A stretch of 64,000 nt of DNA from an uncultured virus (IMG/VR IMGVR_UViG_2660238363_000004) (IMGVR_UViG_2660238363_000004), one strand, 5' to 3'. Counted from the stretch's first letter, positions 47,252-56,365 are shown. Notes: generated by a model not told the origin, from the sequence alone. A program made the numbers and translations.

Positions 47252-47929
47252 ATGGCAATTTGTACTTTTTTACAGGTTCCAAACGCCGTTAATAGCGGTA
47301 TTCAGTCCACCTATACCGAGCGCGATGATAAAACAGCCAGGTGGAACCCATCGCACTATTTTGACTGGCGAGTATCAACTCTTGCAGACCGCGCTGGCGA
47401 TATGAATATTGCACTAGGTTCTGCAATCTCAGCGTCGACGCTGAATGGAATCAAGACGATGAAAAGTGCGCTAACCGCAAATGGTGGTGTCACATCTGAG
47501 AACGTCTATCCGACCACTGCAGCAAACGGCTATTGCTACGCCTTCGCTTTCAAGCGAGATAACGCCACACAAGCTACCTTTTTAATCGCGGGGCCCCATC
47601 TGCGGCTGCAGGCACAGACAGATAACAAACTATATTATTACAAAACCGGGTCATCTACCCAGCAGGGAGGGGTGGCCTTATCCACAGGCATTGACCTTGT
47701 GATCGTGAACTACGACCCGGTAACTGACACTGAGACGGTGTATGTCAATGACGGCACCATGGCAGTGCCCGCTGCATCGTCTATTACCTACCAGAATGCT
47801 CCGCTAACGCTGGCGGCAACTGCCGCGAATAACGTTAACTATGCAGAGGTCCTTATCTTTTCAACGTCAAAATCGATATCTGAAATTTCACAAATAAAAT
47901 CATACTATAGAGACCAGTACGGCAACTGA
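47252..47929 (+). CDS. Beta-rich (ConA/LamG-like) tailspike partner protein
   Basis: VIVNYD...TVYVND...YAEVLIF; follows the spike gene. Confidence 0.5.
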   Translation: MAICTFLQVPNAVNSGIQSTYTERDDKTARWNPSHYFDWRVSTLADRAGDMNIALGSAISASTLNGIKTMKSALTANGGVTSENVYPTTAANGYCYAFAFKRDNATQATFLIAGPHLRLQAQTDNKLYYYKTGSSTQQGGVALSTGIDLVIVNYDPVTDTETVYVNDGTMAVPAASSITYQNAPLTLAATAANNVNYAEVLIFSTSKSISEISQIKSYYRDQYGN

Positions 47930-47940
47930 TTGTCAACCGC

Positions 47941-47977
47941 TTGATCTTCCCTTCTAATAAAACTACTGTATATAAAA
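47941..47977 (+). promoter_or_regulatory. SOS promoter and left part of a LexA box split by the IS
   Basis: TTGATC-17-TACTGT; removing the IS and one TSD copy gives TACTGTATATAAAAACAGT. Confidence 0.85.
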
Positions 47978-49293
47978 GGGTCTTCCCTTGTTGTGGTGGC
48001 TGAAGGCATGATAATGGCGTATTAAATCGCCAGAGGTCACCACCATGGACGAAAAGTCCCTCTATGCACATATCCTCAACTTGTCAGCTCCGTGGCAGGT
48101 AAAGTCTCTTTCTCTCGATGAAAATGCCGCTTCTGTTACCGTTACTGTCGGAATCGCTGAAAATACTCAGTTAACCTGTCCAGCCTGCGGGAAATCCTGC
48201 CCCGTTCACGATCACCGGCATCGTAAATGGCGCCACCTCGATACCTGCCAGTTCGCCACGATAGTTGAAGCCAGTGTGCCCCGTGTTATGTGTCCGAAGC
48301 ATGGATGCCAGACTTTGCCTGTTCCGTGGGCGGGGCCCGGCAGCCGGTATACGCTGCTGTTCGAATCATTCGTGCTTTCATGGCTGAAAATCAGCACTGT
48401 TGATGCGGTCAGGAAACAACTCAAACTGAGCTGGAATGCCGTTGACGGCATTATGACCCGCGCGGTTAAACGAGGTCTTGCACGCATAAAAAAGCCGTTA
48501 GCAGCCCGGCATATGAATGTGGACGAGGTCGCTTTTAAAAAAGGACATCGTTATATAACGGTGATCTCCGATCGTGACGGGCGGGCGCTGGCTTTAACGG
48601 ATGATCGAGGTAAGGAAAGTCTTGCCGGTTACCTCAGAACCCTGACTGACGGACAGCTGCAGGCCATTAAAACGCTCTCAATGGACATGAATGCGGGCTA
48701 TATAAGAGCCGCGCGCATCCACTTACCGTGTGCAGTTGATAAAATCGCCTTTGACCGCTTCCACGTAGCGAAACAGCTGGGTGAGGTGGTGGATAAAACC
48801 CGCCAGAATGAACATCCCCGTCTTCCGGTTGAAAGCCGCCGTCAGGCCAAAGGTACCCGCTTCCTGTGGCAGTACAGCGACAAATGGATGACTGAGTCCC
48901 GGCAGAAAAAGCTGATGTGGCTGCGGGAACAGATGCAGCAGACAAGCCAGTGCTGGACACTGAAAGAGCTGGCCAAAAATATCTGGGATCGCCCCTGGAG
49001 CACAGAACGCAGGAATGACTGGTTGCAGTGGATATCGCTGGCGTCTCAATGTGATGTGCCGATGATGAAAAACGCAGCGAAAACCATCAAAAAACGGTTA
49101 TATGGAATACTGAATGCGATGCATCATCGTGTCTCGAATGGTAATGCAGAGGCGCTGAACAGCAAGATCAGACTGCTGAGAATAAAAGCCAGAGGATACA
49201 GGAACCGGGAGCGCTTTAAGCTGGGAGTGATGTTCCACTATGGAAAACTGAATATGGCGTTCTGAGTCTTCCCACCATGATCGGGGAAGACCC
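47978..49293 (+). mobile_element. ISL3-family insertion sequence (1316 bp, ISKox3-like) with 8-bp target duplication
   Basis: Terminal IRs GGGTCTTCCC / GGGAAGACCC; ATATAAAA at 47970..47977 and 49294..49301. Confidence 0.93.
48045..49265 (+). CDS. ISL3 family transposase
   Basis: CPACG zinc finger, VDEVAFKKG, SMDM, FDRFHV and NGNAEALNSKI motifs. Confidence 0.95.
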   Translation: MDEKSLYAHILNLSAPWQVKSLSLDENAASVTVTVGIAENTQLTCPACGKSCPVHDHRHRKWRHLDTCQFATIVEASVPRVMCPKHGCQTLPVPWAGPGSRYTLLFESFVLSWLKISTVDAVRKQLKLSWNAVDGIMTRAVKRGLARIKKPLAARHMNVDEVAFKKGHRYITVISDRDGRALALTDDRGKESLAGYLRTLTDGQLQAIKTLSMDMNAGYIRAARIHLPCAVDKIAFDRFHVAKQLGEVVDKTRQNEHPRLPVESRRQAKGTRFLWQYSDKWMTESRQKKLMWLREQMQQTSQCWTLKELAKNIWDRPWSTERRNDWLQWISLASQCDVPMMKNAAKTIKKRLYGILNAMHHRVSNGNAEALNSKIRLLRIKARGYRNRERFKLGVMFHYGKLNMAF

Positions 49294-49306
49294 ATATAAA
49301 AACAGT

Positions 49307-51215
49307 GTGCGCCGGGAGACCGGTAGAGATCAAGGGGTGAAAGTCCCCGACCATTGAAGGACCAGCAATCCACAAGGTCCCCGAGTCATGCGTTGCATAC
49401 CGCGAGGTATGGGGTGAAGCGTTGACAGGGGTGTTGACAGGCCAGCCATTGAGCCACGAAATGTATATTAAATTACCGGGTGCCGACGTTGTACTGTTAA
49501 CGGAAGGCAACATCATAGGGTGCGATACTGCGAGTGCCACATGGACCCGGCGGGGTCTGAGACCCTGGCATGTCAATACGATCTCTACGCGGGAACCGGG
49601 AGATCTCCCCTCTGACCATCTGCCAGTGTCGGGGATGGCCCGCACCGGGAAGACGAGGAGTCATAGCCGGTGATGTACGGAGAGGAGAAGTCGGACTCGC
49701 TCATAGTAGCGGCGAAGCAGGCGAACAACCCGAAAGGAGCGGAGTCAGTGGAGCGAAGGAGCGGGGCCAAGGGGAACGCGGAACAGCCACACATGCGCCG
49801 GACACAGAGCCGGGAAAGCATGTCACAGAGGCTGTCACGCGTGCGGGAAGCTGCGAAGCAGCGGAAGAAAGAACGGTTTACAGCATTGTTCCACCTGCTG
49901 ACAGTCGAAGCACTGGAAGCCGCATTCCTCTCCCTGAGCAGGAAAGCGGCCGCCGGAGTGGATGGCATCAGGTGGATGGACTACGCCGGAAACATGAAGA
50001 ACAACATAACAGATCTGCACCGGAGGCTACATCAGGGCAGCTACAGGGCGCAGCCCGGCAGGCGTCACTACATCCCAAAAGCGGATGGAAAACAACGCCC
50101 GCTCGGCATCGCCTCGCTGGAGGACAAGATCGTCCAGTATGCGCTGGTGAAAATCCTGAACGCAGTCTATGAAAACGACTTTATGGGGTTCTCATACGGG
50201 TTCAGACCCGGGCGAAGCCAGCACGATGCACTGGACGCACTGGCCACAGGGCTGGTACGCACTAACGTAAACTGGGTACTGGATGCCGACATCAGTCAGT
50301 TCTTTGACAGGGTGAGCCACGAATGGCTGATCAGGTTCACAGAGCATCGGATCGGCGACCGGAGGGTAATCAGGCTCATACGTAAGTGGCTCACAGCCGG
50401 GACGTCGGAGGAGGGTCAATGGCGAGCAACGGAGGAAGGCACCCCACAGGGTGCGGTCATCTCACCGCTGCTGGCAAACATATACCTCCACTACGTCTTC
50501 GATCTGTGGGCGCATCAGTGGCGACGTCGCTATGCCACAGGCAATGTGGTAATGGTCAGATACGCCGATGACATCGTCATCGGGTTCGACAAACGATACG
50601 ATGCCCGGCGCTTCCGTATAGCCATGCAGCGCAGACTGAGGGAGTTCGGACTCACGGTTCACCCGGAGAAAACCCGTCTGATGGAGTTCGGCCGCTTCGC
50701 TGCCGAAAACCGTGCCATCAGGGGAAAAGGCAAACCAGAAACGTTCAACTTCCTCGGGTTCACGCACATCAGCGGGAAAGATCGCAACGGCAGGTTCATG
50801 CTGATACGAAAGACCCGCCGGGATCGGATGACGGCAACTCTGAAAGCCATCAAAGACGGTCTGCGAAGGCGCTGGCATTACTCAATCCCCGAACAGGGAA
50901 AATGGCTCAGGAGAGTGGTGCAGGGATACCTGAACTATCACTCGGTACCGGGCAACTTCCCCACCATGCAGAAGTTCAGGACACACGTAACAAACCTCTG
51001 GCGCCGGGCGCTCAGGCGCAGGAGCCAGAAGGATGATACGACCTGGACGAAAGCAAACAAACTGGCAGCCGCATGGCTACCAGGGGTTCGGGTTCTTCAT
51101 CCATGGCCTGTGGAGCGGTTCACCGCCAGACACCCGAGGCAGGAGCCCGGTGCGTAAATCGCGCACGCCGGGATCTGTGCGGGGGGTATCCGGTAACGGG
51201 TATCCCTACCGCGAC
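49307..51215 (+). mobile_element. Group II intron (RT/maturase, no En domain)
   Basis: 5' GTGCG; domain V GAGCCCGGTGCG...CGCACGCCGGGATC; domain VI ending CTACCGCGAC. Confidence 0.92.
49670..51157 (+). CDS. ltrA: Group II intron reverse transcriptase/maturase
   Basis: YIPKADGKQRPLGI, SYGFRPGRS, GTPQGAVISPLLANIYL, RYADD and FNFLGF motifs. Confidence 0.96.
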   Translation: MMYGEEKSDSLIVAAKQANNPKGAESVERRSGAKGNAEQPHMRRTQSRESMSQRLSRVREAAKQRKKERFTALFHLLTVEALEAAFLSLSRKAAAGVDGIRWMDYAGNMKNNITDLHRRLHQGSYRAQPGRRHYIPKADGKQRPLGIASLEDKIVQYALVKILNAVYENDFMGFSYGFRPGRSQHDALDALATGLVRTNVNWVLDADISQFFDRVSHEWLIRFTEHRIGDRRVIRLIRKWLTAGTSEEGQWRATEEGTPQGAVISPLLANIYLHYVFDLWAHQWRRRYATGNVVMVRYADDIVIGFDKRYDARRFRIAMQRRLREFGLTVHPEKTRLMEFGRFAAENRAIRGKGKPETFNFLGFTHISGKDRNGRFMLIRKTRRDRMTATLKAIKDGLRRRWHYSIPEQGKWLRRVVQGYLNYHSVPGNFPTMQKFRTHVTNLWRRALRRRSQKDDTTWTKANKLAAAWLPGVRVLHPWPVERFTARHPRQEPGA

Positions 51216-51234
51216 GTTTATCGGAGGGAAGAAC

Positions 51235-51474
51235 ATGCTTCGACAGTCAGACATCGCCGCGGCTTTCCGAGAGTCGGTATTGCGCAACGCCAAAGGCTAC
51301 CAGTACCTGCACACCCGCGACTTCGTTACCGCGCTGCGCCAGCATGGCATCCACTTTTCTGAGGTGGAAGCTAACGCCTGGATCGCGCGAGAGCAAACGT
51401 ATTTCGTCGATAAGACGCCTGACCATAGCGAAAACAGGTTGTGGATGATGGCCAACATGGGGAGGGTTCTGTAA
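51235..51474 (+). CDS. Small SOS-cassette protein (79 aa)
   Basis: GGAGGG RBS in the 3' exon; MLRQSDIAAAFRESV...ENRLW. Confidence 0.7.
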   Translation: MLRQSDIAAAFRESVLRNAKGYQYLHTRDFVTALRQHGIHFSEVEANAWIAREQTYFVDKTPDHSENRLWMMANMGRVL

Positions 51475-51791
51475 TGGGCTTTCCATCACCGGCGACGGAC
51501 TACACGGAACAGCGATTAACGGTTAACTCGATCTGCAATGTCGGTCCAAATACGCTCGTCTTCGAGCAATCTGGCGGTTACGTTGTGCTGGATATCTCCC
51601 TGAAGCCAAAGCAGGGAAGCCAGCTGCTTATCCAGCACGGTGGCGGGACGGAACTTGCCACGCTGAGAGGAAAGTCACTGATAACCGATGATGGCGAAGC
51701 GATCGAGGGGGATGCTCTGGACGATGTCACTGTCGTCGGTGTCGTGACATTTACTATCTGCGATGTGCGCCATGACAACGCGGTTGTTTAG
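51474..51791 (+). CDS. UmuD-like (degenerate S24) protein
   Basis: MGFPSPATDYTEQRL and VVGVVTFTI; catalytic GDSM motif not seen. Confidence 0.65.
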   Translation: MGFPSPATDYTEQRLTVNSICNVGPNTLVFEQSGGYVVLDISLKPKQGSQLLIQHGGGTELATLRGKSLITDDGEAIEGDALDDVTVVGVVTFTICDVRHDNAVV

Positions 51792-52169: not shown

Positions 52170-53384
52170 ATGAAGCTCACAGCCCGCCAGGTCGACACAT
52201 CCAAGCCTAAGGACAAACCCTATAAGCTGTCTGATGGTGGCGGTCTTTACCTGTTGGTGAACCCCAATGGCTCGCGATACTGGCGCCTGAAGTACCGCAT
52301 CGCTGGTAAAGAGAAACTACTGGCGTTGGGGGTATATCCTGATATCACTTTGGCGGAAGCCAGACAGAAACGCGCGGATGCAAAAAAGGTTCTCGCTGCT
52401 GGTGGTGATCCAGGGCAGGAGAAGCAGGAAGAGAAACAAGCGAAAGAGCAGGCCGTGGCAAACAGCTTTGAGCGCCTGGCGATGGAATGGCATTCCCATA
52501 AAAGCACATCGTGGTCAGAAGGCTATGCCGAGCATCTCCTGATGTACCTGAAGAAGGATATCTTCCCCTTCATCGGGCAAAAGGCGATTACGGATATCAG
52601 CCAGGTTGAAATGCTTAACGTCCTGCGAAAGATGGAACAACGCGGCGTTCTGGATAAACTCAAGAAAACCCGTCAGGCCTGCCGGCAGATATTCACCTAC
52701 GCCATTATTACCGGTAGAGCTGAGCACAACCCTGTATCCGATCTGGCTGGCGCGCTGAAGTCGCCCAAGCAACAGCACTACCCACACCTTTTAGTCGACC
52801 AGATCCCGGATTTTCTCCGTGCGCTAAGTGAATACAGCGGTAGCACAATCACCCGCAACGCCACCCGACTGTTAATGCTTACCGGGCTCAGGACAATTGA
52901 GCTCCGTGCCTCTGAATGGGTTGATATCGACTTTGACAAAGGCGTTTGGAATATCTCCGCAGAGCGAATGAAGATGCGGCGCCCACATCTCGTGCCTCTC
53001 TCGAGCCAGGTTCGCGAGTTGCTGGAAGAGATCCGCCAGCTTACCGGGCGAGGGAAGTATGTTTTCCCCGGACGGAATGATGCCAGCAAGCCAATGAGTG
53101 AGGCCAGCATTAACCAGGTGATTAAACGAATCGGTTATGACGGTAAAGCGACCGGGCACGGCTTCCGCCACACCATGAGTACCATCCTCCATGAACAGGG
53201 ATATAACACCGCCTGGATTGAAACGCAGTTGGCCCACGTCGATAAGAACTCAATCCGCGGGACGTACAACCACGCTCAGTATCTGGACGGCCGGCGGGAA
53301 ATGCTCCAGTGGTATGCCGACTATATGGCGGCGCTTGAGAACGGTGAAAATATGGTTCATGGCTCGTTCGGGAAACGTGCCTGA
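52170..53384 (+). CDS. int: P4-family integrase
   Basis: YKLSDGGGLYL, LGVYPDITLAEAR, TGLRTIE, HGFRH, QLAH and YNHA motifs. Confidence 0.95.
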   Translation: MKLTARQVDTSKPKDKPYKLSDGGGLYLLVNPNGSRYWRLKYRIAGKEKLLALGVYPDITLAEARQKRADAKKVLAAGGDPGQEKQEEKQAKEQAVANSFERLAMEWHSHKSTSWSEGYAEHLLMYLKKDIFPFIGQKAITDISQVEMLNVLRKMEQRGVLDKLKKTRQACRQIFTYAIITGRAEHNPVSDLAGALKSPKQQHYPHLLVDQIPDFLRALSEYSGSTITRNATRLLMLTGLRTIELRASEWVDIDFDKGVWNISAERMKMRRPHLVPLSSQVRELLEEIRQLTGRGKYVFPGRNDASKPMSEASINQVIKRIGYDGKATGHGFRHTMSTILHEQGYNTAWIETQLAHVDKNSIRGTYNHAQYLDGRREMLQWYADYMAALENGENMVHGSFGKRA

Positions 53385-53528
53385 CTGGATGCATAGACAG
53401 TATATGCAGACGATAGTAGACTTAGGTAGACGAACAAAGAATAGGCTATGTCTAGGCTGATCCCCGAAAACCCGTACACCTCTGCGGGCTGGCATAGCCG
53501 CCAAAATCAGAGGGCGTGAGGTGGCGTT

Positions 53529-55631: not shown

Positions 55632-56365
55632 TTACTAGTATCCAAGGTAATAGCCTCTCTATGGCTGGCCTGTTAGCAAATGTTAGCACTTTGCGAGTGC
55701 TGCGAAGCCACGGGAATCTGTCGAAACCTGTCACTTTGCGGGTCACTGAAGGTGGTGCGCAAAATGCCGGGTGGAATTTCTGGAATAGGAATAGCGATTC
55801 CTTTAACACCTGCAGTAAAAATTTTTGCGAGTCCATAAAAAATGGCTTGATGTTCTACGTCATCCAGGTCTATGGTTATTGTGCACCAGCAAAATCTGGT
55901 GCCGGGATTGGCGTCTCGGAGAGTTTACAGGCGACCTATGACGCGCCATGCGTCTTTTTTTGTGTCGTTAATTCAGTACACCCTTTTTTCTGCGTTGCGG
56001 GTATAATCCGCGTCGCTCACAAAATAATGGTGGGCTGGATGGGGGCGGAGAAATCCGCGCCGGTTTCCTGTAACGCCGGTTACGCCAACCCTGTTCAGTC
56101 CACCACCAGCGAAATTGGCGTTTCCGGTGGTGGGTTTCAGACCCAGTTACAGGAGGCTGCCACCATGGCTACTACCCCTACCCCTACCCAAAATCCACAA
56201 TTTATCTGGATCATCGCTGCTATACGACGTGATAGCCAATTCGTCACTGTAAAAATCTTCCACGTTACCGCAGTCTCTGAACGCGAAGCCCGTCGCACTT
56301 TAGTGCGTGATCATATTTGTTTTTTCGCTGGCCGCATCCGTCTGACGGAGGTGGATCATGCGTAA
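55628..56365 (+). CDS. icd: Ash/Icd-family ORF; Icd-like product probably starts at 56165
   Basis: MVGWMGA...GYANPVQSTT.EIG and MATTP...SEREARRTL...FFAGRI; AGGAGG before 56165. Confidence 0.75.
   Translation: MITSIQGNSLSMAGLLANVSTLRVLRSHGNLSKPVTLRVTEGGAQNAGWNFWNRNSDSFNTCSKNFCESIKNGLMFYVIQVYGYCAPAKSGAGIGVSESLQATYDAPCVFFCVVNSVHPFFCVAGIIRVAHKIMVGWMGAEKSAPVSCNAGYANPVQSTTSEIGVSGGGFQTQLQEAATMATTPTPTQNPQFIWIIAAIRRDSQFVTVKIFHVTAVSEREARRTLVRDHICFFAGRIRLTEVDHA
56028..56108 (+). ncRNA. C4/CI-type antisense immunity RNA
   Basis: TGGTGGGCTGGATGGG...CCCTGTTCAGTCCACCA stem; ACGCCAA (56082) complements TTGGCGT at 55908 and 56115. Confidence 0.8.

Follow-up and report, generated by a model that had tools for sequence, protein, structure and literature searches.

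The 64,000-nucleotide stretch of DNA analysed here (the window), from an uncultured virus (IMG/VR IMGVR_UViG_2660238363_000004), contains a copy of the endonuclease-less group II intron Kl.pn.I5, inserted in an operator of the SOS regulator LexA. We consider it quite probable that the lineage of this intron retrohomes into LexA operators, that the left half of the operator is read by the intron-encoded protein, that the direction of the replication fork sets the orientation of insertion, and that copies lying sense to an SOS gene are expressed under LexA control. The element itself is a known group II intron; the SOS operator as a class of intron target appears not to be in print. Sequence comparison strongly supports the claim of the original prediction that the retroelement homes to SOS boxes in general, since the intron occupies the same position in different LexA boxes in about 82 site clusters.

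LexA operators as the probable target of the intron

The motif CTGT-N8-ACAG, the LexA operator (SOS box) motif of gamma- and betaproteobacteria, is carried by the restored window site and by its empty counterparts, and it recurs in front of the intron elsewhere. Intron loci were recovered by an exact 35-mer of the intron 5' end, which located 20 loci in species-representative genomes, at least 112 in metagenomes and 57 in viral contigs. Among 202 intron 5' ends, 200 had a flank of at least 25 nucleotides (nt); these reduce to 95 distinct flanks, 59 of which read strictly CTGT-N8-ACAGT. After removal of flanks that are the end of another intron or are broken by an insertion sequence (IS), 109 distinct 30-nt flanks were obtained. 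The motif at positions -17..-2 is perfect in 80 of them, has one mismatch in 21 (101/109 with at most one) and more in the remaining eight. Elsewhere in the same loci it occurs 157 times in 1,307,196 positions (~1e-4 per position), and the enrichment of the box before the intron is far beyond chance. The logo of the flanks preceding GTGCG, expected to be enriched for this motif, bears the expectation out: it reads TACTGTATAT..A(T/A)ACAGT before the insertion point and A after it, with 1.6-1.9 bits at C-17, T-16, G-15, T-12, T-10 and -4 to -1. These perfect boxes end 1 nt 5' of the intron; the insertion point is constant and lies after base 19 of the 20-bp box. When further loci were added and sites were grouped by the 21 nt 5' of the box, 82 clusters resulted, 61 with a perfect box and 73 with at most one mismatch, spanning Enterobacterales, Burkholderiales, plasmids and phages.

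The genes next to the occupied boxes agree with this picture. The chromosome of E. coli 97.3 (NZ_CP061758.1) carries six 100% identical copies, at tisB, sbmC, umuD, symE and two prophage operons, each of the latter consisting of a small open reading frame (ORF) and a DinI-like gene. A copy lies at umuDC in three further E. coli chromosomes, plasmid copies adjoin umuD, one small ColE1-type plasmid has a copy before its cloacin gene, and one copy in Burkholderia cenocepacia has an SRAP gene on one side and an imuB-type polymerase gene on the other. All of these (umuD, sbmC, tisB, symE, and the DinI-like, cloacin, SRAP and imuB-type genes) are members of the SOS regulon. At other Burkholderiales sites the neighbours are unrelated or of toxin-antitoxin type (Pfam on crude ORFs) and are not informative. 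Occupied boxes next to hipA-type toxin genes were observed in two distant hosts, E. coli 88_1577 (L310) and Trinickia (L012).

The preference for LexA boxes extends beyond near-identical copies. Variants 92-96% identical to the intron (in E. coli and Klebsiella michiganensis) lie at LexA boxes, and so does a Burkholderiales form with 73% nucleotide identity and 72% identity of the reverse transcriptase (RT). The nearest other relative (L243), with an RT 63% identical over 307 aa, has another target. Eighteen further introns of the Rfam D1D4-6 type (RT identity 33-51%) were examined; none of the nine with a located 5' end lies at a LexA box, the 5' end not being placed in the other nine. Of the 300 genomes scored in a 301-genome sample from the class to which Burkholderia belongs, 24 contain an RT match at E<=1e-60.

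The identity of the window element is well defined. It differs from the copy on the K. pneumoniae plasmid pK245 at 4 positions in 1909 nt (99.79% identity), and the pK245 copy shares its RT, as one RefSeq protein, with copies on other plasmids. The pK245 copy is the reference of Kl.pn.I5 in the Zimmerly database, according to the available part of PMC3522654, and Se.ma.I1 is a synonym of Kl.pn.I5 (PMC6764390). Domain I gives a full-length match to Rfam RF02005 (group-II-D1D4-6) at 49340-49565, with 184.8 bits against a gathering score of 49. The intron-encoded protein, annotated ltrA in RefSeq copies, matches the RT/maturase model TIGR04416 over residues 81-451 (376.2 bits, cut-off 300) and Pfam RVT_1 (E 4.6e-47); no endonuclease domain was detected in it by Pfam, which returned RVT_1 only, or by NCBIfam. 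The fold of the last 84 nt (51132-51215) shows a domain V, with its 2-nt bulge, followed by a domain VI, at a minimum free energy (MFE) of -44 kcal/mol and z = -3.3. The ends, 5' GTGCG at 49307 and 3' ...GAC at 51215, fit the GUGYG/AY ends of group II introns. Thus the predicted start, directly after the operator, is present, and the predicted end at 51240 had to be moved to 51215, because most E. coli copies share that end and the empty sites agree with it. Among E. coli records, intron matches are found at 275 places in 219 of 5426 genomes, 230 of these places being on plasmids; multiple identical copies per genome, together with empty sites, imply recent mobility. Some plasmid copies at the umuD box (e.g. 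L001, L016) start with GTTCA, GCTCA, GTTCG, TTGCG or ATGCG in place of GTGCG, and such mutated 5' splice sites suggest that these copies are splicing-dead.

The arrangement of the window around the operator is as follows.

47927-47929: stop codon of a phage ORF, with tail-fibre genes upstream
47930-47958, + strand: likely sigma-70 promoter of the SOS-controlled operon, TTGTCA-17 nt-TCTAAT, read by eye
47964-47977, unstranded: left part of the split LexA operator, TACTGT and the 8-nt spacer ATATAAAA, which is also the left target-site duplication of the IS
47978-49293, + strand: ISL3-family IS, 1316 bp, with the transposase ORF at 48045-49265
49294-49306, + strand: right part of the split operator and 5' exon contacts of the intron, a second ATATAAAA followed by ACAGT
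49294-49300, + strand: intron-binding site 2 (IBS2; -13..-7), overlapping the right IS duplication
49301-49306, + strand: IBS1, AACAGT
49307-51215, + strand: group II intron Kl.pn.I5/Se.ma.I1, 1909 nt, GTGCG...CGCGAC
49462-49468, + strand: candidate exon-binding site 2 (EBS2), UGUAUAU, on the unpaired 5' strand of a domain-I internal loop
49493-49498, + strand: EBS1, ACUGUU, in the terminal loop of the hairpin 49487-49502
49670-51157, + strand: intron-encoded reverse transcriptase/maturase, 495 aa, with the GTG start that RefSeq uses for identical copies
51143-51212, + strand: domain V (51143-51175, 2-nt bulge) and domain VI (51179-51212, internal bulge near the 3' end)
51223-51228: ribosome-binding site (RBS), GGAGGG
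51235-51474, + strand: ORF of the 3' exon, 79 aa, phrog_3893 (E 3.9e-40)
51477-51791, + strand: gene of a UmuD-like protein, phrog_3469 (E 1.2e-45)

Removal of the IS and one duplicate from the window yields the operator TACTGTATATAAAAACAGT. Two E. coli chromosomes (L277, L278) have the same neighbourhood without IS or intron, consisting of the promoter, TACTGTATATAAAAACAGTA and the RBS; the reconstruction is exact, because these empty, unsplit sites read the same, and the earlier statement that excision of the IS restores a LexA box is thereby confirmed. The stated identity of this box with the E. coli umuDC box also proved correct: four E. coli chromosomes have the same sequence before their annotated chromosomal umuD. 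In L277 and L278 the empty operator is followed by the same pair of the 79-aa ORF and the UmuD-like gene, which are predicted to form the operon that the operator originally controlled. The promoter-like TTGTCA/TCTAAT ends 5 nt 5' of the operator and is kept in both empty sites; we consider it a likely sigma-70 promoter of this operon, and a stricter consensus scan of the empty site found no promoter. The 3' exon opens with G in the window (51216) and at the sbmC site (L021), and with A in the empty alleles of the window site. Among 46 distinct sites the +1 base is A in 44 and G in two, and the G may be either a polymorphism or a change made at insertion.

How the operator is read

The right half-site, (A/T)ACAGT, pairs with EBS1, and the AT-rich spacer would be recognized by EBS2. 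The hairpin CGTT-GTACTGTT-AACG at 49487-49502, described earlier as displaying ACUGUU, is located at the Rfam EBS1 position and is reproduced by the MFE fold, and its loop is a perfect 6-bp complement of the last six exon bases AACAGT. Among D1D4-6 relatives loop and exon change together (ACUGUU/AACAGT, ACUGUA/TACAGT, CCAGUC/GACTGG and GGAGAA/TTCTCC, all 6/6 complementary); ACUGUA is the loop of the Burkholderiales form, and the CCAGUC and GGAGAA loops belong to three more distant D1D4-6 introns in the same genomes. The stem of the EBS1 hairpin covaries in relatives as well. On these sequence comparisons we regard the EBS1 assignment as proven by covariation.

An unpaired strand, AAAUGUAUAUUAAAUUA, lies 5' of the EBS1 hairpin in both the Rfam alignment and the fold. 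The predicted pairing of UGUAUAU (49462-49468) with the AT core of the operator was upheld as the best of the registers scored, the partner being -13..-7, contiguous with IBS1, and the paired fraction over 50 distinct exons being 0.81-0.85. Shifting the register by 2 nt gives a similar score (0.73-0.78 paired), because the spacer is AT-repetitive. In a relative the segment homologous to EBS2, UAGAUG, pairs with CATCTG at -13..-8, and T-12, A-11 and T-10 are very strongly conserved, as EBS2 pairing would have it. Pairing of EBS2 with -13..-7 thus seems well supported but ambiguous in register. In addition, an A two positions 5' of EBS2 could pair with T-14, resembling the EBS2a-IBS2a pair that is described for IIB introns in the available part of PMC8643678.

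EBS1 and EBS2 cover only -13..-1; C-17, T-16 and G-15 lie beyond this pairing and are conserved like the right half (1.6-1.8 bits). The left half-site CTG (-17..-15) would therefore also be needed, and it is probably read by the intron-encoded protein, because it is conserved, lies outside the EBS pairing, and its sole RNA candidate was rejected. This candidate was the ACAG in the second UUGACAGG of domain I, which is not conserved in the Burkholderiales form (CUGAUAGG); the first UUGACAGG copy is conserved even in relatives with other targets. No other candidate RNA partner for the left half was found in Kl.pn.I5. In other introns the intron proteins read the distal 5' exon, the same region as the left half, as the available parts of PMC3522654 and PMC12584367 describe.

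If RNA pairing alone selected the target, 13-14 nt would be read by EBS1, EBS2 and maybe the EBS2a-like pair, LexA boxes would be the main genomic source of such sequences, and the left half would be a passenger. Indeed EBS1 and EBS2 together can pair with the whole of -13..-1, the potential pair with T-14 would extend this in the manner of IIB introns, and a few sites lack a recognizable left half (e.g. L091, L086). However, the information content of the left half equals that of the right half. Moreover, the right-half pattern TATNNANACAGT has 29 occurrences in the 97.3 chromosome (26 for the reversed control) and is accompanied by a left half of one mismatch or fewer in only 10 of the 29, yet all three occupied matches are among those 10, and this six-copy genome has an empty non-box site carrying the identical 13 nt. 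We give this explanation little chance. The left half as a by-product of genome content was likewise not supported by the right-half test in this chromosome.

Recognition lies almost wholly in the 5' exon, and the box is consequently intact after insertion. Three tandem arrays of introns stand behind single boxes, head-to-tail and one intron length apart: 1909 nt in L179/L180, 1915 nt in L017/L020, and two different intron variants in tandem in the third (L152). An occupied operator can thus be re-invaded.

Survivorship is a second alternative: the intron would insert more broadly, and copies would persist only at LexA-repressed sites, where they are silent and harmless. Leclercq & Cordaux, in the available part of their paper, argue that group II intron copies are strongly selected against in Enterobacteriales (PMC3522654), and LexA repression would lower the cost of a copy. 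On the other hand, the six copies in 97.3 are 100% identical, hence recent, and all at boxes; about half of the insertions are antisense, outside the promoter control of the operator; and the insertion point is nucleotide-exact in every box, tandem re-invasion taking place at that same point too. We regard survivorship as very improbable. It is still harder to credit that the palindrome, folded on single-stranded DNA into a hairpin or cruciform, is what the intron reads, in the way that class IIC introns read the stem-loops of terminators and attC sites: the target is palindromic, and the intron has no endonuclease and an apparent tie to replication forks, which expose single-stranded DNA, but its 6-bp EBS1 and its EBS2 region set it apart from IIC introns, boxes in which an arm position is left unpaired (CTGG with ACAG) are often used, and EBS1 pairing and the hairpin are mutually exclusive, because IBS1 lies inside the 3' arm of the would-be stem.

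Orientation, LexA control and a second element at the operator

The intron enters the box from either strand. In 97.3 three copies are sense to the SOS gene (sbmC, umuD and one prophage operon) and three antisense (tisB, symE and the other prophage operon), and a crude ORF-based call classed about 21 of 50 sites as sense and 13 as antisense, with 16 ambiguous. The predicted landing in a 5' untranslated region therefore holds for sense copies and not for all copies, since antisense insertions occur too. An antisense copy sits between the promoter of the SOS gene and its operator. The antisense copies of 97.3 at L229 and L028 adjoin the SOS-induced toxin genes tisB and symE and would part their operators from the upstream promoter sequence; antisense insertion may mute these two genes.

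When the origin of 97.3 was placed by gene order against E. coli K-12 map positions, six of six copies were found to point with the replication fork, and three other strains have their umuDC copies oriented as in 97.3. One copy near hipA is too close to the terminus for an orientation call. The GC skew of the flanks on the intron sense strand is positive in 23 of the 31 clusters with at least 3 kb of flank (mean +0.029; Wilcoxon p=0.0009, binomial p=0.011). The pattern fits insertion into the lagging-strand template, as known for endonuclease-less introns, and is suggestive of fork direction, not gene direction, choosing the orientation.

In the mechanism that we favour, retrohoming into LexA operators, replication forks would supply the priming for an intron lacking an endonuclease, so that the choice between the palindrome's two equivalent orientations would fall to fork direction. 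Sense copies would be transcribed from a LexA-repressed promoter, and would be made when LexA is cleaved, at which time the operators are also expected to be free.

Several observations weigh against parts of this mechanism. Many flanks derive from related plasmids or phages, so that not all of them are independent events. Rfam RF00029 (domains V/VI) has no match in 51050-51300 at E<=1. The register of EBS2 is ambiguous owing to the AT-repetitive spacer, and a widespread G-to-C variant at 49463 (EBS2 position 2; runs X8 and X12; nine exon types) has no compensating change at -8. Protein reading of the left half is argued solely by exclusion, and in the Burkholderiales form AUACA in the EBS2 loop could pair with -16..-12, so that an RNA contribution is possible there. 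One chromosomal copy, in an integrative element, points against the fork, and the GC skew measure is confounded by gene orientation. Finally, 14 RNA runs from four studies contain 0.35-0.46 of the sampled words, and the contigs of four of them show the intron at other LexA boxes and contain no exon-exon or lariat joint, contigs being unable to show expression.

The window copy itself departs from the predicted control by DNA damage. An IS has split and so destroyed its operator and has placed the promoter 1.3 kb away, which takes the copy out of LexA control. This IS belongs to the ISL3 family by its Pfam DDE_Tnp_ISL3, HTH and Zn-ribbon matches, the NCBIfam model transpos_ISL3 (331.6 bits) and its inverted ends; a RefSeq copy with the annotation ISCfr12 family matches it at 100% identity, and ISKox3 and ISEc53 match it at 85-88%. 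It is flanked by the 8-bp duplication ATATAAAA at 47970-47977 and 49294-49301, a length typical of the ISL3 family. In all 27 viral-contig loci (L250-L276) the left end of the IS abuts CTGT (26) or CTGG (1) followed by exactly 8 nt. Sixteen of these loci have a recognizable duplication, whose removal restores a perfect box in 12 (N8 being the duplication), a CTGG box in one and an ACAT right half in three; two IS loci have unequal flanks. Judging from these junctions, the IS targets the spacer of the LexA operator. This targeting is not described for ISCfr12, ISKox3 or ISEc53 in any paper found, and literature searches for ISKox3 or ISL3 with LexA returned nothing relevant. Within the intron set, three different boxes (window, L073, L079) contain both the IS and the intron.

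Where the IS is present, positions -17..-14 of the intron no longer read CTGT, and sites of this type often carry the intron alone, with 24 loci sharing the flank; from these two facts the intron likely inserted first and the IS second. The duplication keeps -13..-1, and the window intron therefore retains IBS1 and IBS2. The history of the window site would then be the entry of the intron into the operator of a prophage operon (79-aa ORF and UmuD-like gene), followed by an ISCfr12-like IS that targets the 8-bp spacer of LexA boxes, splitting the operator and ending LexA control.

Comparison with known introns and wider meaning

The target of Kl.pn.I5 has been considered before. In the available part of Leclercq & Cordaux 2012 the homing site is a consensus from three copies, with no free site in one genome (PMC3522654). 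Neither the SOS operator as the target nor the roughly 80 different boxes found here is stated in that part, and the words LexA, SOS, operator, palindrome and promoter are absent from its text (PMC3522654). Full-text literature searches, with subscription journals, the Zimmerly database and supplements outside their scope, returned no report of group II introns homing to LexA boxes or SOS operators. An integron review that mentions both group II introns and LexA is about IIC-attC introns, and the lists of specialized targets in Waldern et al. 2020 and Gomes et al. 2025, as far as their available parts go, omit the LexA operator.

Class IIC introns and Kl.pn.I5 are alike in targeting a generic regulatory DNA motif, in having no endonuclease, in a dependence, apparent for Kl.pn.I5, on single-stranded DNA or replication, and in inserting between genes. 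They differ in that class IIC introns use a hairpin and a 3-4-nt IBS1 and have no EBS2, whereas Kl.pn.I5 has an RNA of the Rfam D1D4-6 type, a 6-bp EBS1 and an EBS2 region, and its target is read as sequence. The hallmarks of class IIC are indeed lacking, the EBS1 being 6 bp long, the EBS2-type loop pairing well and IBS1 lying in an arm of the palindrome; no terminator-like site was found at the empty target.

RmInt1 and other endonuclease-less introns of IIB type have no endonuclease (En) domain, their protein reads the distal 5' exon, and they show a bias to the lagging-strand template; Kl.pn.I5 likewise shows no such domain and is proposed to resemble them in the other two respects. RmInt1 targets an insertion sequence, in contrast to the transcription-factor operator targeted by Kl.pn.I5. 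Another specialized intron lineage, tied like Kl.pn.I5 to the expression signals of stress genes, inserts inside codons of one gene family, whereas Kl.pn.I5 uses the operator of a whole regulon in either orientation.

The known specializations of group II introns are for IS elements, terminators, attC sites and start or stop codons, and aiming at a global stress regulon through its operator would be a new strategy. As a target this operator is short, non-coding and multicopy, is conserved in both beta- and gammaproteobacteria, and is wired to a damage-inducible promoter. The hypothesis predicts SOS-gated expression, protection of targets by LexA and an orientation set by replication, and it explains the frequent place of the intron beside umuDC on resistance plasmids. 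It bears on the alteration of SOS genes, toxin genes (tisB, symE), colicin operons and prophage induction switches in natural strains.

The presence of an unrelated IS at the spacer of the same operator suggests convergent exploitation. Tentatively, and with somewhat less than even confidence, we propose a broader view of LexA operators as a landing pad for unrelated mobile elements: the intron ribonucleoprotein would read the LexA half-sites, the right by EBS1 and the left by its protein, and compete with the repressor, the intron would be a damage-gated retroelement, the ISL3-family element would have converged on the same 20 bp, and the SOS regulon would be rewired by both. DNA damage would then have a double effect, switching on intron transcription from occupied operators and unmasking new targets. 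If this is true, the intron and the IS uncouple or silence umuDC, tisB, symE, colicin and prophage-induction modules, and they do so while spreading on resistance plasmids and phages.

Downstream of the UmuD-like gene, the window contains one further group of features of mobile DNA.

52170-53384: P4-type integrase, 404 aa

Accompanying this integrase, within 52170-53513 and 55883-55960, are an int-alpA RNA motif (43 bits) and the Hfq-binding small RNA isrK (72.8 bits), and the group suggests a second integrative element beside the end of the prophage.

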